Sequence record: PQ511146.1
DNA from: Escherichia phage NHEP1
Length of the DNA stretch: 64,000 nucleotides
Strand: one strand, 5' to 3'
Below, piece by piece: positions 46,946 through 63,885 of the stretch. The number at the start of each line of letters is the position of its first letter. Within the stretch, counting starts at the first letter, position 1. The notes beneath the pieces were generated by a model. It worked only from the letters and a program-made list of their open reading frames with translations. It was not told where the DNA came from and did no database searches. Position numbers and translations under genes: made by a program.

Positions 46946-46974
46946 TTGACACAACGCTTCAGATTTAGTATCAT
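46946..46974 (+). promoter_or_regulatory. sigma70-like promoter followed by leader hairpin (46984-47001)
   Basis: TTGACA (46946-46951) N17 TATCAT (46969-46974); then AGAGGG-TTGGTT-CCCTCT plus TCTTT before the HPF-like gene. Confidence 0.5.
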
Positions 46975-52763: not shown

Positions 52764-54191
52764 CACACAAGTCTGCTTTGCAGGTTTAGCTGCTCAGCTA
52801 AGGTTCTGGAGGCACCTATAACATCTTCCAACTAAATTTCCTACCAACACAGTTACTTACCTACCACACATGACTGTTTGCTTGTTTAGTGAGCAGTCAT
52901 CACTTGACATTCTTGCCTATCTTGATAAAATTAAGTTCTTCTCTTTTCTTTTACCGAGTAATTCGGGTTTTCTGTTCTCTTCGGTTTGAAGGGGTATGGA
53001 GATACACCTGAGTGAACAGGGTGAACAACCGAACCTTTAGCTATGGCATTAGCATGGCGAAGCGGACGGGTGACGAAAGAGGGGCCGGAGGACACCAGTC
53101 ACTGCCATATAGTATATGGGTGATAACCTGAAGAGTCTGAATAAGTGTTTAAGTACCAGTCAGAGGAAAAGGTGAATGGTAGCCGAAGGGGGAGGGGGGT
53201 TTCTTATATCTTTAATTTGTATACTTTATATACACTTGTAAACCAATTCAATTAGAATCTGTTTACCACACAAAGGGGATGGAGACAAATATCACCTATT
53301 AAACTTGAATTATTTATAGAAAATACCACAACACCCGTTAAGTCTTTGATTTTACACACAAATCTTACAAATATCCTACCTCCACATTTAACATACTTGT
53401 AACATATTCCATATCCTACCTGCCTGATCAATTTACTCCATCACATTCCCACATTTTCCCTGTCTGTACTACCCCACCCCCGCCGGGAGTCCCGTCATAT
53501 CTGGCTTTCCAGCAAATATCACACCAACAAATATCATCACCTGAAGAGGGTTTCATCCCATAATACCTGCCTTACCTGAAGAGCGCTTCATACACCACGT
53601 AAATTTTTTAATTGACCCCTCCCCGCCGCCAGAGAGGTTGGCTTTTCCCACACAGGCCTGAAGAGTCAGCCAGAAATATCTGAACAGGCAGTTATGTCCC
53701 GATTTTGTGCTTGTCCTACAGGAGTGCTGCCAGGCGGACGGAATGGGAATACTTCTCATTCTTATAATAATTCTCAAATATCGAGGCAGTGAGGCAAATT
53801 AATAGGCCAGGCCGTTCACACAGTGGCACAACATTTGCAATCTATCTTGTGTGGATGAATGAGAATACCTATCATTGTGAGAATGGTTATCATTACGGGC
53901 AATTTAACATAATACCCATTATGCGCACCACTGGCGATACATACAGGGATTGATAACATGGGTTACTGTTTACGCATATAACAATTATATTTCTTACTAT
54001 TTGTGTGGGATATAGTTAGCAACCAATAGATTAGATATTGACCTGCAGACTTCTGACCGTCCAGACGTCTAAACGCCCACACAACAAGGATTATACATAC
54101 ACTCCTGCATGTAACCAGGGCCGCAAAAATGCTACCATACCAGTTTGTAAATTTTTCATGCAGCACTTGACAAAGAGGAGAAAAACTTGTC

Positions 54192-54250
54192 TGACACAAT
54201 GTGACAATTTTGTCACTTTTGACACTTTTACCTTTGACACAATATGACAC
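54192..54250. repeat. cluster of TGACA(C) iterons
   Basis: TGACAC at 54192, 54220, 54235, 54245, GTGACA at 54201 and inverted copy TGTCAC at 54211, all within 59 bp. Confidence 0.75.
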
Positions 54251-54330
54251 AATAACGGCTGTTACTATTCCATATCTCACTGTTTACGCCTGAATAGTTT
54301 ACGCAAAAACTGTTTACACAGAGATGATAA

Positions 54331-54608
54331 GCCATGCCATTCGTTTGCATGAAAACAATTAACAAGATAACAATTGACAAGCTAACAGCCAACAAGCTGA
54401 CAGTTAATAAGTTAATAAGTTATGACATAATATAAAAGCAGGGCAACTATTAGAAGATCTATAGTTGCCTTGCTTGTTATGTCATGATTAACTAAATACA
54501 AGGCAACTATGATCTGAATAATAGATTGCAGACAAACTATCACGGGGGTGATTGTTACTGCTTTTATATTATGTCGCGACTCCGTCGCGCCATGCCATTC
54601 GTTTGCAT
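54331..54608. repeat. 20-bp direct repeats flanking an 18-bp inverted-repeat element
   Basis: Direct repeat GCCATGCCATTCGTTTGCAT at 54331-54350 and 54589-54608; inverted repeat GACATAATATAAAAGCAG (54424-54441) / CTGCTTTTATATTATGTC (54559-54576); inner palindrome GGCAACTAT...ATAGTTGCC (54442-54469). Confidence 0.75.
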
Positions 54609-55223
54609 AGTTGCCTTATTGTTACAGGTAAAACAATTACATTATTAATTATTTCTTATCTTTCTCTTAGTCATCTAATGATTCCAGTCAGTATAGTAAT
54701 GTACAGTAAACATTAGACGACTAAATATTTCTCTGTGTATAATAACTTATCGTGACAATTTCGAACTGTTTACGAAAAATGTTGACACCTGAGCTGATTT
54801 ATGTTATGCAGTTTACACGAATAATTATTTTATGCAGGTATTGACTATTCCGTTATTCTGTGGTTGGAATAAATACTTTGCAGACTATAGAATGGCGTGC
54901 GTACGTGAATTCTGAGATCTGGCGGCTATAGTTATACTCGATTTTTCGCGTAGAACACGCTTTCGATGCTGTGTAAGTGTATGACTTATAAAGATTTTTA
55001 GTTGTTGACAAGATATTGGAGATGTGCATCAGGTTAAAATTTGTGCAATAGCGGCATTACGTGCACTTTTGGGAGAGAAAACGGGTAAAAATGGCCCTGC
55101 TACCACACAATGAAAGATTATGCAATAGTTATTTTCCATGTATATTTGTACAGTATGTGGGATTGATGGCTAGTCAATTATTCCACTTGCCAGGTAGGGC
55201 CGTTTATGGTAGGAGAAGAGCAG

Positions 55224-55690: not shown

Positions 55691-55834
55691 GGTGTTTTTA
55701 CCTCTTAGTTAATTTTCTTACAACTTCCCTTCAAAAAAGAATATAGCAAAACTGCCGATCCCTGTCAACAAGGGATAGCATAATTTTTATGTGATCAAGG
55801 GGCTTTATCGCCCCTGACCATGCAACCTGTTGTA

Positions 55835-56098
55835 TTATTTGTTGCTCATCCAGTTTTCCCAAGCTGCCTGATAATCTGCCTCACTACGGCGGATCTCTTC
55901 TTGTTCTTCAAGCCGGATCTCTTCTTCCAGGTACCCCAAGATGTCAGCCTTTTTAGTCTGGCGCAACATCCAATCGTCTTTTTTGCGAGTAAAGATCTTG
56001 TACGCTTTCTCGCAAACTTCTTTTTTGCTACCTTTTTGGACTTCAAGAATTCTGTAAGCCATGTACTGAACTAGTTTGAGCTGGTCAAGACGTTTCAT
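55835..56098 (-). CDS. hypothetical early protein
   Basis: 87-aa ORF. Confidence 0.4.
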   Translation of the reverse strand: MKRLDQLKLVQYMAYRILEVQKGSKKEVCEKAYKIFTRKKDDWMLRQTKKADILGYLEEEIRLEEQEEIRRSEADYQAAWENWMSNK

Positions 56099-56161: not shown

Positions 56162-56434
56162 TTACTTACGGCGGCAAAATTCAAGTGTTTTTAATTGATA
56201 ATCTTCCTCAGCCTGGAGTACAACCGCCTCGATCATTTCGTTGGCATTGTTGAAGCCATACCCTTGAGCGAACTCATCCGCGCCACCTTTGTGATCATGT
56301 TCTGCGTTCATCGCTTCCACAAAATGGAATTCAAGATTATTGAGGTAGGGGCTTGATGTTCCGTCCTCTTTTTCGATGAGATCCCAGATAGCGTTAAAAC
56401 GTGATTCGACTTCTTGGTTAATCCAGCTTGACAC
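56162..56434 (-). CDS. hypothetical early protein (acidic)
   Basis: 90-aa ORF. Confidence 0.4.
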   Translation of the reverse strand: MSSWINQEVESRFNAIWDLIEKEDGTSSPYLNNLEFHFVEAMNAEHDHKGGADEFAQGYGFNNANEMIEAVVLQAEEDYQLKTLEFCRRK

Positions 56435-56639
56435 GGCGTTTTCCTCTCTTCTGGTTGTTGTGTGGGCACTTTTGCCCCTTCAAGGTAAATGCTACCCCAC
56501 CACCCGGCAGATGTCAACGGTTTTTATAGTTTTTTATATGACAGGCACCCCCGGTGATTGTCTCCCCCCGTCGCCAGGTGCCTGCCGTGAAATAAGCATA
56601 ACAAAAAACAGGACAAAAACAAGCCCTGTTTTGTAAAGA

Positions 56640-56843
56640 TTAGATGATCTGCATATCCTCCACGATAATTTCTAATTTCCAAATAAGATGATCTAAGCTC
56701 CCTGATAAAAATGATTCCGATACATAACCGCCATCGGATACCGTAGCAAGGATCTCGCCATTTGCTTGCTCTTTGATTTGAACATCCAGGCGGTTAGCCT
56801 TTGCTTTATTCAGGACGGCGATCAGGCGGTTAGCTGTAGTCAT
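56640..56843 (-). CDS. hypothetical early protein
   Basis: 67-aa ORF downstream of promoter 56894-56921. Confidence 0.45.
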   Translation of the reverse strand: MTTANRLIAVLNKAKANRLDVQIKEQANGEILATVSDGGYVSESFLSGSLDHLIWKLEIIVEDMQII

Positions 56844-56893
56844 GGTGTTTTCCTTCCAGTTGTGAGCGGCACTATTGCCGCCCTACGTGATAC

Positions 56894-56921
56894 ATCTTAC
56901 ACTATCCGGCACATCATGCAA
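56894..56921 (-). promoter_or_regulatory. sigma70-like early promoter plus conserved leader hairpin
   Basis: Minus strand TTGCAT N16 TAAGAT, then GTATCACGTAGGGCGG and hairpin GCGGCA-ATAG-TGCCGC (plus 56862-56880). Confidence 0.5.
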
Positions 56922-56927
56922 GCTATT

Positions 56928-57119
56928 TTATACTTCCTCACCTATAAAGTCGGATCTATTCTTCTCCGTCATGCGTTTAAGTAGTTCTTGCATGTTGCTG
57001 ATAGCTTGCAATGTATCTTCTTCCAGGCTTGAATCAAGATAATCAGGATCATTCTTCACCTTGCTATGATTGTGATACCGCAACGCTGCTAATACCTTTC
57101 TAACTTGTTCTGCATTCAT
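56928..57119 (-). CDS. hypothetical early protein
   Basis: 63-aa ORF. Confidence 0.35.
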   Translation of the reverse strand: MNAEQVRKVLAALRYHNHSKVKNDPDYLDSSLEEDTLQAISNMQELLKRMTEKNRSDFIGEEV

Positions 57120-57131
57120 TTTTATTACTCC

Positions 57132-57344
57132 TTAAAACCAGGTGCCAACCGTTTCCAATAGGTCACTGACTACCAGAACAACACCGATTAGCACATATTT
57201 AATCAGGAAGGGGATTAGCGCCAGCGCCGCTACTATGATCCCCATTGTCATGATTATTTTTCTCATGGTTAACGGTTCACGTAAGTTTTTTTTTCCCATC
57301 TTCTGATCCTCTGTTAGCATACGATAGCGATCACGCCGCCACAA
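57132..57344 (-). CDS. small membrane protein
   Basis: 70 aa; hydrophobic IIMTMGIIVAALALIPFLIKYVLIGVVLVV. Confidence 0.4.
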   Translation of the reverse strand: MWRRDRYRMLTEDQKMGKKNLREPLTMRKIIMTMGIIVAALALIPFLIKYVLIGVVLVVSDLLETVGTWF

Positions 57345-57577
57345 ATAGAAGGTAAATCAAAACGGTCTAACTTGCAAGCTATTTTTAAACGAAAGGCAAC
57401 ATAAAAGAAAATTTGCAAACAATCGATCATTGTGTTAGCTGTTGAAACGCTGCCAGCATTAAACACCACCCCGCCCACGGCGTTAAACGTTGCGTTACTC
57501 ACGAAAGCGGAAAGGCAAGCGATCACGGTGGCGATCATAATGTTGCGTTTTGTCAATCTGTAGATGATGTTTTTCAT
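57314..57577 (-). CDS. hypothetical membrane protein
   Basis: ORF 57314-57619 trimmed to MKNIIYRL because the longer start overlaps the promoter; hydrophobic IMIATVIACLSAF. Confidence 0.35.
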   Translation of the reverse strand: MKNIIYRLTKRNIMIATVIACLSAFVSNATFNAVGGVVFNAGSVSTANTMIDCLQIFFYVAFRLKIACKLDRFDLPSICGGVIAIVC

Positions 57578-57617
57578 TCTGTCATGTTGGCGGCAGCATT
57601 GCCGCCCTACGAAATAC

Positions 57618-57645
57618 ATTCTACCCGATTTGTAATTGTTGTCAA
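57618..57645 (-). promoter_or_regulatory. sigma70-like early promoter plus conserved leader hairpin
   Basis: Minus strand TTGACA (plus 57640-57645) N16 TAGAAT (plus 57618-57623), then GTATTTCGTAGGGCGG and hairpin GGCGGCA-ATGC-TGCCGCC. Confidence 0.55.
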
Positions 57646-57646
57646 A

Positions 57647-57916
57647 CTAATTTTTCAAGCTCGACCAGTCAAAACACGGCGGGATCTCGTTAAAACTTGT
57701 GCCCTGTAAAGCACATAATTTTTTAGCAATAGCCGCCGTGACCTGGCGCTGTACGCGCGGATCTGCTACTGATTGGAGAAAGTAGGCGGCTTTATACGTG
57801 ATCATGCTTTCGCCTGTTTCCTTGCTAACATGATGCACTATTTTAGCCTTATCATCTTTTACCAGGGTGTAACCGGATTCGATGGCCTTGATTGCAACGT
57901 CCAATGATATTTTCAT
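57647..57916 (-). CDS. hypothetical early protein
   Basis: 89-aa ORF. Confidence 0.45.
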   Translation of the reverse strand: MKISLDVAIKAIESGYTLVKDDKAKIVHHVSKETGESMITYKAAYFLQSVADPRVQRQVTAAIAKKLCALQGTSFNEIPPCFDWSSLKN

Positions 57917-57963
57917 GATTTATCTCTTTATTGATGGCGGGGAATACTCCCCCGCCTTATTAA

Positions 57964-58134
57964 TTACTCTTCATCGTCGCCGTTATAGTATTCAATGCCG
58001 TTTTCATCGGTTACGGTAATATTAACGCCACCGATAGCAACACGATCACGGGCAAACGTCATGGCTTCATTTAAATCTTCAGACCAAAAAATATTGTGAC
58101 CTTTGCGCGATACGTAAAACATAGTCGGGATCAT
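57964..58134 (-). CDS. 56-aa micro-protein (unannotated)
   Basis: Own translation MIPTMFYVSRKGHNIFWSEDLNEAMTFARDRVAIGGVNITVTDENGIEYYNGDDEE downstream of promoter 58189-58216. Confidence 0.35.
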   Translation of the reverse strand: MIPTMFYVSRKGHNIFWSEDLNEAMTFARDRVAIGGVNITVTDENGIEYYNGDDEE

Positions 58135-58188
58135 GATTTGTTTCTCTTTTGTTGTGAGCGGGAAACCATTTCCCGCCCTATGTGATAC

Positions 58189-58216
58189 ATCTTAAACTAA
58201 TTTAAAACGTTGTCAA
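58189..58216 (-). promoter_or_regulatory. sigma70-like early promoter plus conserved leader hairpin
   Basis: Minus strand TTGACA (plus 58211-58216) N16 TAAGAT (plus 58189-58194), then GTATCACATAGGGCGGG and hairpin GCGGGAAA-TGG-TTTCCCGC. Confidence 0.55.
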
Positions 58217-58446
58217 TTATTTTCAAAAAATTTTTCTGCCGTGATATTCTTCCCGGTAGGGTTCGCTACTTTCAAAATTTTATCATGCACTGGACGCCCA
58301 AAAGAATAAGCGCCGTACACAGTGCACCAATAATCGCCGTCAGGCTGTACTATTACCGCCGCATAGGGTACGCCTTTTTCGTTTTTGCTGACAAAATAGA
58401 TCACATTGCCATTAATAGCCTCAGCGCGTTTAATTTGTTCCATCAT
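58213..58446 (-). CDS. hypothetical early protein
   Basis: 77-aa ORF. Confidence 0.4.
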   Translation of the reverse strand: MMEQIKRAEAINGNVIYFVSKNEKGVPYAAVIVQPDGDYWCTVYGAYSFGRPVHDKILKVANPTGKNITAEKFFENN

Positions 58447-58509
58447 GATGATTCACCTATCTTTATTTTTTCATAGTTTCAGGAGGGGCCTTTTTCGGCC
58501 CCGCCAGGC

Positions 58510-58794
58510 TTATTTATTGATGGCGTGCAGCGGGAAAGGTACGCCAGGTTGATAGATAACTTTTACAACCTCATCAGGGCAAAAGAAGTTACAAAATTCA
58601 CCCCGATAAGCTTCATCTTCTTTTAATTCTTCATCAACATACTCAAAAAAGTAGTCGATGCTTGGATAATCCTGGCCGGGATTATAGTCAACCATTGTCA
58701 GGACCAGTTCAAGATCGTTGCGTAGGATATGCATACCTGCTTTTAAGTATTTTGCTTCCATTTCTACTACATCGCCAACGGTAACAATAGCCAT
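58510..58794 (-). CDS. hypothetical early protein
   Basis: 94-aa ORF. Confidence 0.45.
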   Translation of the reverse strand: MAIVTVGDVVEMEAKYLKAGMHILRNDLELVLTMVDYNPGQDYPSIDYFFEYVDEELKEDEAYRGEFCNFFCPDEVVKVIYQPGVPFPLHAINK

Positions 58795-58998
58795 GGTTTT
58801 AACTCCTATCTATCTGGTTAATGATTGGAGGCCTCACCGCTCCCCCGACACCCTTTATTATCCATATTGTAGGACTTGATGCAAGTACTTCTTTAAAAAT
58901 TTTTAAGCGCCTTGAGGCCGCTGTAACGCCAAAATAATAAAGGCCATGCGGTTGCATAGCCATTAGATGATTATATCGCTGTAGGCCCTGCTGGGGCC

Positions 58999-59349
58999 TT
59001 ATTTTGCATTATTTCCTATATTGCCGCTACGGTACCAGCGTTTACGGTGAAAATGGTAATAATCGCCATCGGCATTAAACATCAGATGGTTTTCAATAAC
59101 CAGCTTACGAAGGTGGGCCGGATCTTGTTCCATTCTTGCCAGATTCTGGCGGCTGTTACGTAAGCGGATAAATTCCATATTCAGGCCGTTGATTGCAGCA
59201 TGGATGTCAAAGTAACCACCTTTGAGACGTTCACGCATGGCGTTAATCTCAACACAATATACAGATTTCTCACAAATCAAGGTATTAGCCAGGGCGCGGA
59301 CCTGGGCAAGGGGGTTAAGCTCATTAAGGTAATATAGTTTTACTTTCAT
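58999..59349 (-). CDS. hypothetical early protein
   Basis: 116-aa ORF. Confidence 0.45.
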   Translation of the reverse strand: MKVKLYYLNELNPLAQVRALANTLICEKSVYCVEINAMRERLKGGYFDIHAAINGLNMEFIRLRNSRQNLARMEQDPAHLRKLVIENHLMFNADGDYYHFHRKRWYRSGNIGNNAK

Positions 59350-59366
59350 AAAATAACCTGCTGAAA

Positions 59367-59672
59367 CTAGTTTGAGAAAACATCGTTCACAATAGCGATC
59401 ACAATGCCGTTCACCTTGTCACGGTCAACAATGCACAAATCACCATAGATCATGTGGTAGTCTGGATGATCTTTGACGGAATAGTCAATCAATGTTTTCT
59501 TATCATCCAGCTTACCAACTTCCATTCTCATAACGATATGAGAATCATCAAAGGCATTATTCCGAAAAGTCATAACCTGACCGCCAGGGCACCCAGTGAT
59601 TTCCACCTCCACGCCGTCTACGATCTGACCATCAAAGAAATAAAGATTATTAGCCTGGATAAACATGATCAT
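59367..59672 (-). CDS. hypothetical early protein
   Basis: 101-aa ORF with AAGGAG RBS. Confidence 0.45.
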   Translation of the reverse strand: MIMFIQANNLYFFDGQIVDGVEVEITGCPGGQVMTFRNNAFDDSHIVMRMEVGKLDDKKTLIDYSVKDHPDYHMIYGDLCIVDRDKVNGIVIAIVNDVFSN

Positions 59673-59717
59673 TACTCCTTTTTTGCACTGATTATTTTAA
59701 CAGGGTTTAAATTTACT

Positions 59718-59760
59718 TTATTGATGGCCCTGGAATCAAGGCCATCTAAAAATAAATTTT
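59718..59760. promoter_or_regulatory. conserved intergenic hairpin element (motif B, copy 1)
   Basis: TTATTGATGGCCCTG-GAAT-CAAGGCCATCTAAAAATAAATTTTA; a 10-bp stem with AT-rich flanks; near-identical copy at 63424-63466. Confidence 0.5.
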
Positions 59761-59959
59761 ACAGGCCTACAATCTCTTTAATTCGTTTTACTGCTGCCTC
59801 AGCGCCTTGAGGGTAAAAATTATGGTAACCAATCACGCGAGTGATACTAATCGCCGTTTGATGATCTTCATAATCACCTTTAAAGATTTCTTGACCGTCA
59901 ATCAGCACGGCAATTTTTTCTTCTTTTTTGAAGTTAATAACGCGGATATTGTTGCTCAT
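59759..59959 (-). CDS. hypothetical early protein
   Basis: 66-aa ORF. Confidence 0.4.
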   Translation of the reverse strand: MSNNIRVINFKKEEKIAVLIDGQEIFKGDYEDHQTAISITRVIGYHNFYPQGAEAAVKRIKEIVGL

Positions 59960-60235
59960 TTTGTTTCTCCTTTCTAGTCTTTGTGGTGGGGATTGCTCCC
60001 CGTTGATTGTTATTATCCATATTCCGGACCGGATTGCAACACCCTAGAAGAAAAATTTTTGAAAAAGTTAAGCCCCCAGGGATTGGGGGCCGTTATCAGT
60101 TACTTACAGCGATAAAGTACATCCCTACGCCTAACAATATTTCAAGAGCGATGATCTCAAGCCATACCGTAACACGGCGCACCTTATCGGTGCGGGGCTT
60201 ATCCTTGGGTGTCATCGTCTCCCCCTTTCCTCCTG

Positions 60236-60454
60236 TTAGCAGTTACGTGGTTTGCAATGGTCCCCAGGAGTATTATCACCACGCACATTACAAGAAAAAT
60301 TATCTCTGTCGTTGTTCGATCCATTGTTATAAAATTCCTTAAGATCAGGCCTGAAAATAAAGCTTTCGTTATTGAATCCATCCCGCCAGGCGGCTGGCTT
60401 CAAATCTTCACTAAATGGATTAATTAACGTGGCATTATTTCGGCTGGCCCACAT
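60236..60454 (-). CDS. hypothetical early protein
   Basis: 72-aa ORF with strong AAGAGGAA RBS; preferred over the overlapping 60199-60381 frame. Confidence 0.35.
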   Translation of the reverse strand: MWASRNNATLINPFSEDLKPAAWRDGFNNESFIFRPDLKEFYNNGSNNDRDNFSCNVRGDNTPGDHCKPRNC

Positions 60455-60836
60455 ATTTTCTATTCCTCTTAAATAAGCGATCCGCCTCAGTTAAACAAAT
60501 CTCATGGGCGTGATCTCTGGTTTTAGCTTCATCGAAAACCTGTTGTGCAAGGCTGCAACGTAGGGAGACTGGAAGATCACTATAATAGGCGTTGACAAAC
60601 GTTTGAGCGTCGTACAGGTCTGAAAATACTTTACCCTTTCTATTATTCCCCTTGTCAACAATTGCAAGGATAACCAATACAATAGTTGCAACCACCCCCA
60701 GGAAAATAGATATAATAAACCATAAAAAGGCGGATCTTCCCATCTTGCCAGCGATCCAGGCGTTAAACAAGGCAACCAATACAGCCAAAATAATAAATTC
60801 CATTCTATGTACCTCTTTTACAGTTCTGATTAACAA
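60435..60836 (-). CDS. membrane protein (two transmembrane segments)
   Basis: 133 aa; FIILAVLVALFNAWIAG and FLWFIISIFLGVVATIVLVILAIV. Confidence 0.45.
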   Translation of the reverse strand: MLIRTVKEVHRMEFIILAVLVALFNAWIAGKMGRSAFLWFIISIFLGVVATIVLVILAIVDKGNNRKGKVFSDLYDAQTFVNAYYSDLPVSLRCSLAQQVFDEAKTRDHAHEICLTEADRLFKRNRKYVGQPK

Positions 60837-60867
60837 TAAGGCGGCAAATATGCCGCCTGTTACCTGA

Positions 60868-61248
60868 TTAAAAATTATCGCCGTAAATCTTTCCGCTTTC
60901 TACCCATACCACCACGCGAGGCATACTATCCCACACGTCTTGTTTTAGATTGAGCGCGTGCAATTCTTCGGTGGTGCTCATACCAGGCACGGGCTGATTG
61001 TATACTGCAAAACGACCACCCGCATAATCATAGGCCAGGGTTAAATCACACTGGATCATCTTTTTGATCATGGCATTAAGCATGGCGTTAGCCGCATATT
61101 GATCACGTTTTAAAGGCAACTCTTTGATTAGTTTGCGATAGTTTTCGATATGGTCGCACACTGTTTCACGCGGAAGATCTTTCATATCTTCACGGAATGT
61201 GACCAGGTTAAACATAACGGTGTCAATAGCCTTGGTAGTGTTTTTCAT
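60868..61248 (-). CDS. hypothetical early protein
   Basis: 126-aa ORF. Confidence 0.45.
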   Translation of the reverse strand: MKNTTKAIDTVMFNLVTFREDMKDLPRETVCDHIENYRKLIKELPLKRDQYAANAMLNAMIKKMIQCDLTLAYDYAGGRFAVYNQPVPGMSTTEELHALNLKQDVWDSMPRVVVWVESGKIYGDNF

Positions 61249-61338
61249 GATGTTATCCTCTTTGTTTTGTGTTGGGGCAAACGTCTTGCCCCCTTGAGTT
61301 TTAATATAGCAGGTTTTTAGGTTATTGCAACACTTTAT

Positions 61339-61962
61339 TTATGAAAAAGTCATCTCACCATATTCATCGACATCAAACCGCCAATCATTGGCCTCGATAA
61401 GGCCGATCAGGTTTTCTGCGGTGAACTGTTCTAGATAGGCCTCCTCCAGGTCTACGTAAACCTTGCGGGATAGCTCCCGTGCCGTCTCGGTGATCAGTTC
61501 TTCCAGGTCTTCCACTTTGTTTTCTTGTTTGGCGGTCAGATCTAGCCAAGTGGTATCAATGTACCCGTTTACAGTGTTTTCATGGCTGTAATGGCTGTAC
61601 TTGTCGCGTTCAATACTGGCGGATAGTTCGCCATCGTGCATTGTGCCGAACAAGTGACGAATTGATCTGAACTTGGTCAGGGCCTTGACTTTACGCAAGA
61701 ATTTTTCTAAGTCTACATTTTCAGCACTGATCGATGCGCCATCGCCTTGACACCAAAAGCCGGACCAATGTACTTCGGTATCTTCAAGGCCGTACTCTGG
61801 AAAGATATATTCTTTGTAGTATTCAATTACATTTTCTGCAAAAAAGTCATCCCCGCTGCGTTCTTCTCTTTCGCGTACCATTTCAATGGCTTTTTCTTTT
61901 TGTTCGTCGGTCAGCACGTCGAAAGATAAATTGTAACCTGTGGTAATGTTAACGGTGGTCAT
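61339..61962 (-). CDS. hypothetical acidic early protein
   Basis: 207 aa, strongly acidic, conserved-looking WSGFWCQGDGASI block; first gene after promoter 62010-62037. Confidence 0.5.
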   Translation of the reverse strand: MTTVNITTGYNLSFDVLTDEQKEKAIEMVREREERSGDDFFAENVIEYYKEYIFPEYGLEDTEVHWSGFWCQGDGASISAENVDLEKFLRKVKALTKFRSIRHLFGTMHDGELSASIERDKYSHYSHENTVNGYIDTTWLDLTAKQENKVEDLEELITETARELSRKVYVDLEEAYLEQFTAENLIGLIEANDWRFDVDEYGEMTFS

Positions 61963-62009
61963 GATATTTTCTCCTGTTTTCTTTGTTAGTGGCGGGAAGT
62001 TTTCCCGCC

Positions 62010-62037
62010 TGCGTGTTTAATTATACTTATTGGGATT
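62010..62037 (-). promoter_or_regulatory. sigma70-like early promoter (consensus) plus leader hairpin
   Basis: Minus strand TTGACA (plus 62032-62037) N16 TATAAT (plus 62010-62015), then AAACACGCAGGCGGG and hairpin GGCGGGAA-AACT-TCCCGCC. Confidence 0.65.
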
Positions 62038-62297
62038 TACTTGTCAACACTATTTTTTAAATTATTGTGGCGCAAAATGTTTAAAATCTCCTCAACGTCA
62101 TCAACACGGCGGCAATTTTTAAACGCTACCAATTGCCCCATGATTTTAATCACTGGGCGGCCTTGCCAGTGCCCCTGAAGAAAGCGCGCCTTGACTTTAT
62201 CGGTGGAACTATCACGCCACCAAATAGCCTTGTTGTTGCAGTAGTAAAAATTATTCAGGATAACATCAACTTTATCAAAATTTTTTAATTTACGCAT
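62037..62297 (-). CDS. hypothetical early protein
   Basis: 86-aa ORF. Confidence 0.45.
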   Translation of the reverse strand: MRKLKNFDKVDVILNNFYYCNNKAIWWRDSSTDKVKARFLQGHWQGRPVIKIMGQLVAFKNCRRVDDVEEILNILRHNNLKNSVDK

Positions 62298-62516
62298 GGC
62301 GTTTACTCCTTTCTCTCTTTGATGTGGTTAGTATAGCTAACCTGTTGACGATGTCAATGATATTTTTAACGCCATAAAACGGCCCTGGGCGATGTTTTCA
62401 GGTTAAAGGGGGGCGATTGCATAGGTGGGGGCCTTTTTGGCACTTACAGGGCCAACCAGGGGCGCTATTCGTAGGATAGAAATAAAAAGCCCCGCACAAT
62501 GGCGGGGCGTTGGTTG

Positions 62517-62714
62517 TTATTTGTCTTTATGGCGGTATCGTTCTGCCTGTCGTTCACGTTCCAAAAGTAGGCAGGGCAATTTACGATCATAATGATTCCG
62601 CCAGATCTTCCCAAACCTTTTTGGCTTATTCAGTTTATTGTTACGCTGTCGGCGTTCTGGCAGCTCTTCGGAATCATGAGGGCGCTTTACAATTTTCTCG
62701 AAATTAATTTTCAT
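62517..62714 (-). CDS. small basic protein (Arg/Lys-rich)
   Basis: Trimmed to MKINFEKIVKRP after AAGGGGGG RBS; RRQRNNKLNKPKRFGKIWRNHYDRK. Confidence 0.4.
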   Translation of the reverse strand: MKINFEKIVKRPHDSEELPERRQRNNKLNKPKRFGKIWRNHYDRKLPCLLLERERQAERYRHKDK

Positions 62715-63057
62715 ATATTCCCCCCTTGCTAACTTCAATATTGGCCTGAATGGCCCGGATACGGCGCTTTATAACTTCCTGATCTGTGTGGTCGTATCCC
62801 CAAAAGTCCACAATTTTTGCGCCCCCAGCCTCCAGGCGGTATAGTGTTTCCTGCATTTTGTAAGCCGGGATCGGTCGCGGTGTTACTTGGTCACCTTCTT
62901 TATTTTTATACTTTATAATATAATCTTCGTTATCGTTGAATTCCCAAAATGGATATTCTGCAAGGGCGGTACTTCCTCTTTCCTTTTTATCCTGGATCTT
63001 ATTTACAATTAAAGCCGTAGCAATAGCGCCAATAATAAAACTAGCCCCGCTGATCAT
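62704..63057 (-). CDS. membrane-anchored early protein
   Basis: Trimmed to MISGASFIIGAIATALIV after AAAGGAGAAA. Confidence 0.4.
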   Translation of the reverse strand: MISGASFIIGAIATALIVNKIQDKKERGSTALAEYPFWEFNDNEDYIIKYKNKEGDQVTPRPIPAYKMQETLYRLEAGGAKIVDFWGYDHTDQEVIKRRIRAIQANIEVSKGGIYEN

Positions 63058-63088
63058 GTTACTTTCTCCTTTCATGGTGTTAATAAAT

Positions 63089-63125
63089 TATCTTTATAGA
63101 TGGCCCTGCAACCAGGACCACCGAA
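63089..63125. promoter_or_regulatory. conserved intergenic hairpin element (motif B, degenerate copy)
   Basis: TATAGATGGCCCTG-CAAC-CAGGACCACCGAAAAATAAC. Confidence 0.4.
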
Positions 63126-63131
63126 AAATAA

Positions 63132-63377
63132 CTATTTCACAATGCCTACAAAACAGATCCCGCCTTCACCTATGTAAGCAATATCGGTCACTTTGTAGTC
63201 GGTTAAGATCTGTTTATTCAGATCATTAATAAAATCGGTCATTGCGTTGGTGTAGTTGTCTTCTGTATCTAAGGCATAATCCCAGGTGTAAACCTTTTTA
63301 CGTCCGAAGCCTTTTACCATGATACGGGCGCTTTTGGTGTTAGTAGGGGCATAATACTTGGTGATTAGTGCTGCCAT
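63132..63377 (-). CDS. hypothetical early protein
   Basis: 81-aa ORF with GAGGAG RBS. Confidence 0.45.
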   Translation of the reverse strand: MAALITKYYAPTNTKSARIMVKGFGRKKVYTWDYALDTEDNYTNAMTDFINDLNKQILTDYKVTDIAYIGEGGICFVGIVK

Positions 63378-63423
63378 GGTTTTAACTCCTCATTAGTTCA
63401 GTGTTAACAGTGTAAAGTTTACT

Positions 63424-63466
63424 TTATTGATGGCCCTGAAGTCAAGGCCATCTAAAAATAAATTTT
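63424..63466. promoter_or_regulatory. conserved intergenic hairpin element (motif B, copy 2)
   Basis: TTATTGATGGCCCTG-AAGT-CAAGGCCATCTAAAAATAAATTTTA. Confidence 0.5.
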
Positions 63467-63806
63467 ACTCGTTTTCTTCCAGCTTTGAAAGCTCTTCTTT
63501 CACTTCTTCAAGCTCTGTCTGCAATTCTTGGTATTCTTCGTCGTCCTCAATATCCAGGCTGTCGATGTAGTCGCTAAATCCGCAGCGGTAAGCGATAGGA
63601 TCTAACTCCTTGAGGATACGCGACGGAAGAAAAGAAATGCTTCCGATCATAATTTCGCCGTAGATCTCGTCTAACCATTCATCATAGTTTTCGTCGTACT
63701 TGTCCTCGTCGATTTCAAAGTTATCGATCTTGTTCTCAAGGTCTGCGATCTGTTTTTTCAGCGCGGCGATCTGCATAGCTTTTTCTGCGGCGGTCATAGT
63801 AGTCAT
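63465..63806 (-). CDS. acidic coiled-coil early protein
   Basis: 113-aa ORF; AAAAGGAGAAAA RBS; downstream of promoter 63858-63885. Confidence 0.5.
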   Translation of the reverse strand: MTTMTAAEKAMQIAALKKQIADLENKIDNFEIDEDKYDENYDEWLDEIYGEIMIGSISFLPSRILKELDPIAYRCGFSDYIDSLDIEDDEEYQELQTELEEVKEELSKLEENE

Positions 63807-63857
63807 GGTGTTTTCTCCTTTTGTGTATTCTGGGAAGTTTTCCCGTTTACGTGTTTA

Positions 63858-63885
63858 AGTATATCAATCTAAGTTAGCTTGTCAA
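63858..63885 (-). promoter_or_regulatory. sigma70-like early promoter plus leader hairpin
   Basis: Minus strand TTGACA (plus 63880-63885) N16 TATACT (plus 63858-63863), then AAACACGTAAACGGG and hairpin GGGAA-AACT-TCCC. Confidence 0.6.

Follow-up and report, generated by a model that had tools for sequence, protein, structure and literature searches.

Promoter-linked leader hairpins in the early region of an rV5-like coliphage as probable 5'-end stabilizers and joints for gene cassette exchange

The early region of Escherichia phage NHEP1

We examined a window of 64,000 nucleotides (nt) from Escherichia phage NHEP1 (PQ511146.1), in which a family of minus-strand promoters, each with a GC-rich hairpin placed in its predicted transcribed leader, lies among small genes between 55.7 and 63.9 kb. 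A 7.5-kb stretch matches the same region of many rV5-like E. coli myophages at 91-95% identity, the Vequintavirus relatives being FV3, EdH4, slur16 and about 270 others, and from this similarity we assign the window to an rV5-like coliphage (Vequintavirus). The counterpart of the 7.5-kb stretch in FV3 and EdH4 is the distal end of a long leftward unit of small hypothetical genes; in the rV5 genome paper, the leftward early-gene unit is one of four transcription units. None of the 20 minus-strand open reading frames (ORFs) between 55.2 and 63.9 kb had a Pfam family above threshold, and they are therefore treated here as ORFans.

Promoter-hairpin modules

The original prediction, made from the sequence of the window, described five minus-strand promoters with a TTGACA or TTGCAT -35 box, a 16-nt spacer and a TA(A/T)(G/A)AT-like -10 box. 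All five were found as described, each with a TAnnnT -10 box and with -35 boxes starting at 63885, 62047, 58216, 57645 and 56921 (Table 1). The GC-rich stem-loop said to follow each of them is strong in four (RNAfold energies of -14.6 to -15.8 kcal/mol, z-scores of -2.8 to -5.0), but P63885 has only a degenerate 5-bp stem. Two leader motifs had been proposed as shared among the promoters. The first, GTATCACGTAGGGCGG, searched with up to three mismatches, had 3 matches against 0.16 expected, a number reached in 0 of 100 shuffles. The second, AAACACGCAGGCGGG, had two true copies and one spurious match against 0.85 expected; the two copies align over 54 nt with 74% identity, but the motif alone is weak.

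The family is larger than these five. By anchoring good minus-strand promoters on their -10 boxes, we identified at least ten sigma70-type promoters with the hairpin layout between 55.7 and 63.9 kb, the additional members being P61330, P60039, P58884, P56517 and P56184, which have the same layout and different stem sequences. The module is ordered as an A/T-rich upstream region, the -35 box, a spacer of mostly 16 nt, the -10 box, a leader of 8-11 nt, the GC hairpin, an A/C-rich tract, a Shine-Dalgarno sequence and the ATG. A/T-rich UP-like tracts lie upstream of all twelve strong minus-strand promoters between 55.7 and 64 kb. Nine of these twelve have a 16-nt spacer and not the canonical 17 nt, and several have an extended -10 box, with TG one base upstream of the -10.

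Table 1. Strong minus-strand promoters of the early region, with their leaders, hairpins and predicted target ORFs (N, spacer length in nt)
Element	Coordinates	Strand	Promoter	Leader	Hairpin	Predicted target ORF	Fold (kcal/mol)	z	Remarks
P63885	63832..63885	-	TTGACA (63885-63880)-N16-TATACT (63863-63858)	TAAACACGTAAAC	GGGAA-AAC-TTCCC (63844-63832)	63465-63806 (-)	-5.6	-1.7	Degenerate hairpin
P62357	62330..62357	-	TTGACA-N16-TATACT				0		No leader hairpin; internal contrast
P62047	61991..62047	-	TTGACA-N16-TATAAT	TAAACACGCA	GGCGGGAA-AAC-TTCCCGCC (62009-61991)	61339-61962 (-)	-14.6	-4.4	12/12 consensus
P61330	61274..61330	-	TTGCAA-N16-(TGc)TATATT		GGGGCAAG-ACG-TTTGCCCC (61292-61274)	60868-61248 (-)	-12.5	-3.8	
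P60039	59988..60039	-	TTGCAA-N16-GATAAT		GGGGA-GCAA-TCCCC (60001-59988)	59759-59959 (-)	-9.4	-3.1	Preceded by terminator 60071-60091
P58884	58827..58884	-	TTGCAT-N16-GATAAT		Decayed G/C-run hairpin in window	58510-58794 (-)		+0.7	No better than shuffles
P58216	58156..58216	-	TTGACA-N16-TAAGAT	GTATCACATA	GGGCGGGAAA-TGG-TTTCCCGCTC (58178-58156)	57964-58134 (-)	-15.8	-5.0	
P57645	57589..57645	-	TTGACA-N16-TAGAAT	GTATTTCGTAG	GGCGGCA-ATGC-TGCCGCC (57606-57589)	Small membrane-like ORF, probable start 57577 (-)	-14.6	-2.8	
P56921	56864..56921	-	TTGCAT-N16-TAAGAT	GTATCACGTA	GGGCGGCA-ATAG-TGCCGCTC (56883-56864)	56640-56843 (-)	-14.9	-3.0	One G-U pair
P56517	56464..56517	-	TTGACA-N17-TAGCAT		GGGCA-AAAG-TGCCC (56477-56464)	56162-56434 (-)	-8.6	-2.1	
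P56184	56134..56184	-	TTGAAT-N17-TAAGAT		GGGCC-AAAA-GGCCC (56147-56134)	55835-56098 (-)	-10.6	-1.9	
P55768	55740..55768	-	TTGACA-N17-TATATT						No leader hairpin; internal contrast

The position of the hairpin is more constant than its sequence. We counted a hairpin as qualifying when it had at least 5 bp, at least 4 of them G-C, and started 8-12 nt after a given position; the background of such hairpins is 0.9% of window positions. Of 22 promoter-like sites in the early region, 7 have one (binomial p=7e-10), whereas none of the 67 such sites elsewhere on the minus strand does. Among 62 unique elements from all phages examined, the offset of the hairpin from the -10 box peaks sharply at 10-11 nt, and in most elements collected across lineages the distance is 9-12 nt. 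The distance from the hairpin to the start codon, taken over the window's own elements, varies from 19 to 35 nt. Because the distance to the -10 box is fixed and that to the ATG is variable, the hairpin is tied to the promoter or transcript start and not to the ribosome-binding site.

At this one position the window has at least eight distinct stem sequences, with loops of 3-6 nt (up to 8 nt in all elements collected). The stems are 5-10 bp long, and in the hairpins collected the G-rich arm always comes first. Eight of the ten window copies fold better than their shuffles (z -1.9 to -5.0), and the Shine-Dalgarno sequence is unpaired in all folds. The hairpin is present whether a terminator precedes the promoter (P60039, P56517 and P58884) or not (P62047 and P58216). 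The hairpins themselves do not qualify as Rho-independent terminators, having no U-tract and being followed by tails such as CACAAC, ACTAAC, AACAC and ACCAC; a terminator scan flagged true terminators (for example 62489-62508, 60839-60858 and 56605-56632) and none of the leader hairpins on the minus strand. A reading of the hairpins as antisense terminators was likewise set aside. When 49-64 kb was scanned against Rfam 15 (E<=1), the only hits were SurC and sraA, both chance matches below the threshold and neither of them on the elements.

Strong promoter-like sites outside the early ORFan region (30384, 15400(-), 44055(-) and 46946) are also followed by stable hairpins, which are of unrelated sequence and have offsets of 2-9 nt. 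The hairpin at 46946 is followed by a T-run and is terminator-like.

Conservation of the hairpin among orthologs

We gathered orthologous elements through homology of the gene downstream, leaving the hairpin out of the selection; they come from 11 related phages, and the search covered 13 loci, two of them phi92-like. Paralog pair counts and a covariance model were set aside: a MAFFT alignment of 30 paralogous leader-hairpins lost the stem register, and paralogs chosen for their stems would have made the test circular. A 5'-proximal hairpin was kept in every ortholog of all ten elements; most are strong and a few are weakened. The pooled nucleotide diversity of the orthologs was 0.031 in the -35 box, 0.064 in the -10 box, 0.085 in the stem, 0.106 in the post-hairpin sequence, 0.12 in the leader, 0.149 in the spacer, 0.172 in the upstream sequence and 0.204 in the loop. 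Diversity in the leader is thus close to that in the spacer and exceeds that in the stem, which runs counter to the earlier proposal that the leader is conserved beyond the needs of promoter recognition. Since orthologous leaders vary in this way, a portable module that recombines and has a common origin is the better explanation of the near-identity of the five original copies.

The changes seen within individual elements mostly leave the stem intact. The hairpin core of P63885 is identical in all nine ortholog variants, with varying flanks. P62047 keeps its hairpin, with a single stem mismatch in two orthologs and loop changes in two, and the P61330 stem survives an inverted loop (GACGT/ACGTC), an A-to-G substitution that makes a G-U pair, and changes in the length of the G/C runs. 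At P60039, GGGGA/TCCCC alternates with GGGGAG/CTCCCC and is weakened in two orthologs. A C-to-T change in one ortholog of P56517 gives a G-U pair, and wherever an ortholog has the P56184 promoter, the hairpin is there too. The orthologs of P58884 are strong (-9.4 to -16.5 kcal/mol) and form a series from G-C to G-U to A-U, with the stems GGGGG/CCCCC, GGGGG/CCTCC and GGAGG/CCTCC, from which RNAalifold recovers a compensatory pair.

Counted by hand, independent stem changes came to about 6 G-U and 2 A-C, no more than a suggestive difference. The case for the sense RNA rests on a few G-U and compensatory events together with the fixed promoter distance. Taken with the range of stems at one position, these observations suggest that the hairpin behaves as a selected structure, which would fit a role at the RNA level, most plausibly in 5'-end stability. 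The shared RNA-level function of the original prediction (stability, processing or a regulator site) is therefore supported for the structure, through the fixed -10 distance, the diversity of stems, their retention in orthologs and the G-U and compensatory changes, but not as a sequence-specific function of the leader. Processing by RNase III, which needs a duplex of about 20 bp, is unlikely because the stems are only 5-10 bp.

Related modules in phi92-like phages

Phi92-like phages (Justusliebigvirus, Stephanstirmvirinae) have this module in far greater abundance: phage alia has 11-12 copies within 8.5 kb, and the window at least 10 in 8 kb. The phi92-like phages have fixed combinations of stem and loop, GGCGGGAAA-TGG-TTTCCCGCC, GGGCGGCA-ATAG-TGCCGCTC and GCGGGAA-TAG-TTCCCGC, which also occur in the window and FV3, and the same variants are multi-copy in alia, muut and A110a. 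The leader and hairpin of P58216 are identical to those of a copy in alia, with differing promoters. Outside the phages of E. coli, Pectobacterium phage POP18 has a similar element, CACATAGG-GCGGGGA-ATGG-TCCCCGC, behind promoters of the type TTGACG-N18-TATAAT. An IMG/VR scan anchored on the flanks of P61330 found a single contig. With the less strict pattern ATAGGGCGGG...CCCGC, over 100 contigs had one hit each; these look like chance matches and were not used.

One intercistronic hairpin of the window has no promoter. It lies at 57937..57956 on the minus strand and has a GCGGGGGAGTATTCCCCCGC core, with ATCAATAAAGAGATAAATC-ATG after it. In phi92-like phages (alia 85144) this post-hairpin leader is found behind hairpins that do have a promoter. 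The hairpin and its ribosome-binding leader thus look like a sub-module that may exist with or without a promoter.

Recombination at the modules

Synteny breakpoints were located by local blastn of the window against nine related loci. One lies at 58211, inside the -35 box of P58216, in five phages, and others at 58187 (the boundary between the -10 box and leader of P58216), at 57590 (in the P57645 hairpin), at 56925-56941 (just upstream of P56921) and at 55797 (upstream of P55768). The remaining breakpoints are at terminators or gene ends. In five phages a common gene, the UP region and the TTGACA upstream of P58216 are followed by three alternative cassettes, all joined at the one -35 box; the window and FV3 part again inside the hairpin. 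The whole cassette of the P56921 promoter and its ORF is carried by slur16 and A141, whereas EdH4, Aya and A112b lack it.

The clearest exchange is a two-gene cassette of about 600 bp (57590..58187, minus strand), which is 95-98.5% identical to Justusliebigvirus phages (alia and A110a) and has unrelated flanks. In the alignment with alia the promoters are unrelated, and 98.5% identity extends from the P58216 leader through both genes and the next promoter, ending in the loop of the P57645 hairpin. The two genes were absent from every other Vequintavirus locus examined, and the cassette looks like the product of a recent horizontal transfer between the Vequintavirinae and Stephanstirmvirinae. 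The next gene in alia is a homologue of FV3_162, which in FV3 sits behind a promoter of the P58216 type. A chimeric element is present in FV3.

Two pairs of orthologous hairpins differ by an exact inversion of the loop with unchanged stems. The first has GACGT against ACGTC (61274-61292 in the window and L003, about 7640, in FV3), and the second has TAG against CTA (alia 82017 and A110a L009:10699). Such inversions appear to be the signature of flip-flopping by a small inverted repeat in the DNA itself.

Comparison with known systems

Of the systems described so far, the promoter-early stem-loop (PeSL) of the T4-like phages comes closest (Arbiol et al. 2010, PMC2839356; Comeau et al. 2014, PMC4122927). 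Each is a recurring composite motif that joins AT-rich sequence, a strong early promoter of sigma70-like type and a G(n)-loop-C(n) stem-loop. Both are multi-copy in ORFan-packed ("hyperplastic") regions, at the edges of segments that have been inserted, deleted or replaced between related phages, with some crossovers in the loop. The PeSL stem-loop, however, is just upstream of the promoter and has been shown to terminate incoming transcription (PMC2839356, PMC4122927), whereas the hairpin described here is 8-11 nt downstream of the -10 box, inside the predicted transcript, and has no U-tract, so that a defining feature of PeSLs is absent. The phages also differ, being Vequintavirinae and Stephanstirmvirinae and not T4-like.

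In its place on the message the hairpin resembles the stem-loops at the 5' ends of stable mRNAs, such as hp1 of the ompA 5' untranslated region (UTR) and that of papA (Emory, Bouvet and Belasco 1992; reviewed in PMC3997798). A short stable hairpin a few nt from the 5' end (predicted, in the present case) followed by an accessible ribosome-binding site is common to both, as are independence of sequence and portability; here too it is structure and not sequence that is kept, with varied stems, compensatory and G-U changes and a free ribosome-binding site. The leader hairpin of T7 phi10 is a further stabilizer of this type. The present elements differ in that their 5' position is derived from promoter geometry, and in being a multi-copy family hard-wired to promoters, whereas the ompA and papA stem-loops are features of single genes.

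Morons, in the concept of Hendrix and Juhala, are autonomous insertions of promoter, gene and terminator in phage genomes. Like them, the cassettes are single small genes equipped with a promoter and often also a terminator, which one phage has and a close relative may lack (as with P56921). Morons have been described in temperate phages and are expressed from the prophage, whereas these cassettes belong to the early region of a virulent myophage and have a common leader-hairpin. The nut sites of lambda-type phages, consisting of boxA and a boxB hairpin, are likewise downstream of early promoters and place a small GC hairpin in the early leader RNA. A nut site serves one long operon, whereas here there is one element per operon of 300-700 bp, the loops are variable and are not GNRA-like pentaloops, and no boxA consensus is apparent by eye. 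New promoters follow the terminators between cassettes, so antitermination is not needed.

Possible roles of the leader hairpin

We consider it fairly probable that the modules are early-expression cassettes in which a 5' stem-loop shields the mRNA, and that the repeated modules double as recombination joints for the shuffling of ORFans. The region would be the distal part of a long early transcription unit, built as a string of small self-contained expression cassettes. Each would consist of an UP region, a sigma70 promoter that is close to consensus and has 16-17 nt between its boxes, the 8-11 nt leader, the GC stem-loop, an A/C-rich unstructured spacer with a free Shine-Dalgarno sequence, and a small ORFan. 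Transcription probably starts at a pyrimidine-purine step 7-8 nt after the -10 box, leaving 2-4 unpaired nt before the stem; at its constant distance after the -10 box the stem-loop would thus form within about 2-4 nt of the 5' end. Beginning at about +2 to +5 of the predicted transcript, it would block attack by RppH and by 5'-end-dependent RNase E and would stabilize early messages without hindering translation. The need of RNase E and RppH for single-stranded 5' termini is the accepted explanation of stabilization by 5' structures (PMC3997798), and because of this need we infer that protection of early messages would be the most likely role. Since the module is repeated within a genome (many copies) and shared between lineages, it would also serve as a homology patch for the insertion, deletion and swapping of ORFan cassettes, and comparison of the loci indicates that the modules act as recombination joints similar to PeSLs.

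Several alternatives bear on the same observations. The leader and hairpin (CAYRTAGG-GCGGGRAA-loop-TTYCCCGC) could be a sequence-specific RNA signal, recognized or cleaved by an RNA-binding protein or endoribonuclease of phage or host origin, which would co-regulate early messages, for example for timed shut-off or processing. This would account for near-identical leader-hairpins in E. coli phages and a Pectobacterium phage whose promoters are built differently, and for the leader and hairpin being the most conserved part outside the hexamers among the paralogs of a phi92-like phage (an average identity of 0.73 in alia, against 0.51 in the spacer). We regard it as unlikely, given the many unrelated stems and loops found at one position of the window, the variability of the ortholog leaders, the lack of an Rfam match, and the travel of stem and loop variants as fixed combinations, which suggests recombination rather than position-by-position selection. 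The inverted repeat, centred near +14, could instead be a palindromic operator at which a dimeric phage repressor silences the early promoters; repressor operators, such as lacO, typically overlap +1 to +25, the spacing from the -10 box is fixed, and arms of the GGCGGGAA/TTCCCGCC type recur. An operator would show the same half-site at fixed spacing, but the co-located promoters carry at least eight arm sequences of which only the complementarity is kept, and the variable loops alter the half-site spacing. G-T wobbles and double changes from G-C to A-T preserve RNA pairing and not a DNA half-site, and the same hairpin types occur between genes without a promoter. We rejected the palindromic operator as a candidate on these grounds and consider it highly improbable.

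The hairpins may also be passengers, that is, stem-loops left over from terminators or insulators on mobile promoter cassettes, offering homology for recombination or a barrier to upstream transcripts and having no role for their own transcript. The crossovers in hairpin and promoter, the DNA-level dynamics evident in the loop inversions and the occurrence of the identical stem GGCGGCA...TGCCGCC in the true terminator at 60839-60858 could all be explained in this way. Without a U-tract the hairpins would nonetheless be poor intrinsic terminators, they are present even after real terminators, most keep a distance from the -10 box that a passenger would not need, and among orthologs the stems are less variable than the loops and spacers, so we find this explanation, too, improbable. 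An element acting on transcription itself, in which promoter escape, pausing near the promoter or access of Rho is tuned by the GC-rich start of the transcribed region and the nascent hairpin, would fit the fixed promoter distance and the leading G-rich arm, and Kammerer and coworkers reportedly found in 1986 that part of the function of T5 early promoters lies in transcribed sequence. The leader has no conserved pause element of the -10-like type, the diversity of stems argues against a specific contact with RNA polymerase, and we think this role very improbable indeed. A broader possibility is that the leader-hairpin is a dedicated cassette-exchange signal of large virulent enterobacterial myophages, at which structure- or sequence-directed recombination moves promoter-plus-ORFan cassettes, possibly with anti-defence functions, between unrelated phages, the hairpin also giving a stable, translation-ready 5' end. 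Recombination directed by the hairpin would account for the loop crossovers, the loop flips and the variants shared across subfamilies and host genera, and the attC cassettes of integrons offer a functional analogy for such movement; we consider this reading improbable.

A number of points weigh against 5'-end protection combined with cassette shuffling, the explanation we favor. The conservation of leader and hairpin among the alia paralogs would be explained by a sequence-specific factor as well. The leader hairpin is absent at two good promoters of the same region, P62357 and P55768, the window copies of P58884 and P63885 are weak, and a few orthologs have disruptive single mismatches. Sense and antisense folding energies did not differ significantly (p=0.059) and G-U counts were equal, in a genome-wide comparison that was swamped by spurious intragenic promoter-like sites. 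Intergenic breakpoints are partly expected for any viable insertion or deletion of a gene. The 5'-terminal position of the hairpin is deduced from promoter geometry only, and we found no transcript-start, half-life or RNA sequencing data for rV5-like or phi92-like phages in the searchable literature. RppH prefers single-stranded 5' termini, but the Bacillus enzyme needs only 2-3 unpaired nt (PMC3997798), and an overhang of 2-4 nt might therefore not fully block RppH, the loss of which affects only about 10% of E. coli mRNAs (PMC3997798).

Early ORFans of virulent phages are the home of many host-takeover and anti-defence genes, and their expression and exchange are poorly understood outside the T4-like phages. 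If our explanation is correct, modular shuffling of the PeSL type is not peculiar to those phages and occurs, with a different layout, in the rV5-like and phi92-like therapeutic coliphages and even between their subfamilies. A hairpin that protects the 5' end would then be routinely built into early promoters, which bears on the survival of phage messages while host mRNA is degraded. In this connection, the T4 Srd protein stimulates RNase E. The rV5 genome paper names a possible Srd homologue, gp11, and we speculate that protected 5' ends could matter during host mRNA decay brought about through such a protein. For phage engineering and synthetic biology, the modules would also offer promoter and 5' UTR parts that are small and easily transferred.

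Both ingredients, shuffling of the PeSL type and 5' stabilizer hairpins, have precedents, and the promoter-linked leader-hairpin layout is a variant of them. In the searchable literature, which is incomplete, we found no description of the hairpin or of module-mediated shuffling for rV5-like or phi92-like phages. Several of these promoters already appear in the rV5 genome paper, where the published lists end at the -10 box and miss the hairpin; the present result improves that annotation.

Other features of the region

A second repeat, of 54 nt, is found in three copies between minus-strand genes (59709-59762, 63085-63138 and 63415-63468; 78-94% identity) and also occurs in FV3. It forms a 10-bp hairpin, GATGGCCTTG-ACTT-CAGGGCCATC, followed by AATAAAGTAAAC, and contains neither a good promoter (a TTGACT is inside the stem-loop) nor a U-tract. 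It may be an intercistronic element for mRNA stability or processing.

At about 52800-55200, where two transcription units converge, there is an ORF-poor stretch of lower GC content (0.35-0.37). It contains short tandem repeats at 54202-54422, namely 4.7 copies of TGACACTTT, two copies of TGACACAATA, and 15-mers. The stretch corresponds to a box marked "non-coding" on the rV5 genome map and to a 2.2-kb gene-free gap in FV3, and it is a candidate replication origin or packaging region.

Several GenBank records labeled "Campylobacter phage" (MG0656xx, marked UNVERIFIED: A13b, A141, A112b, C12 and A110a) are 91-95% identical to rV5-like or phi92-like phages of E. coli. The host labels of these records appear doubtful.

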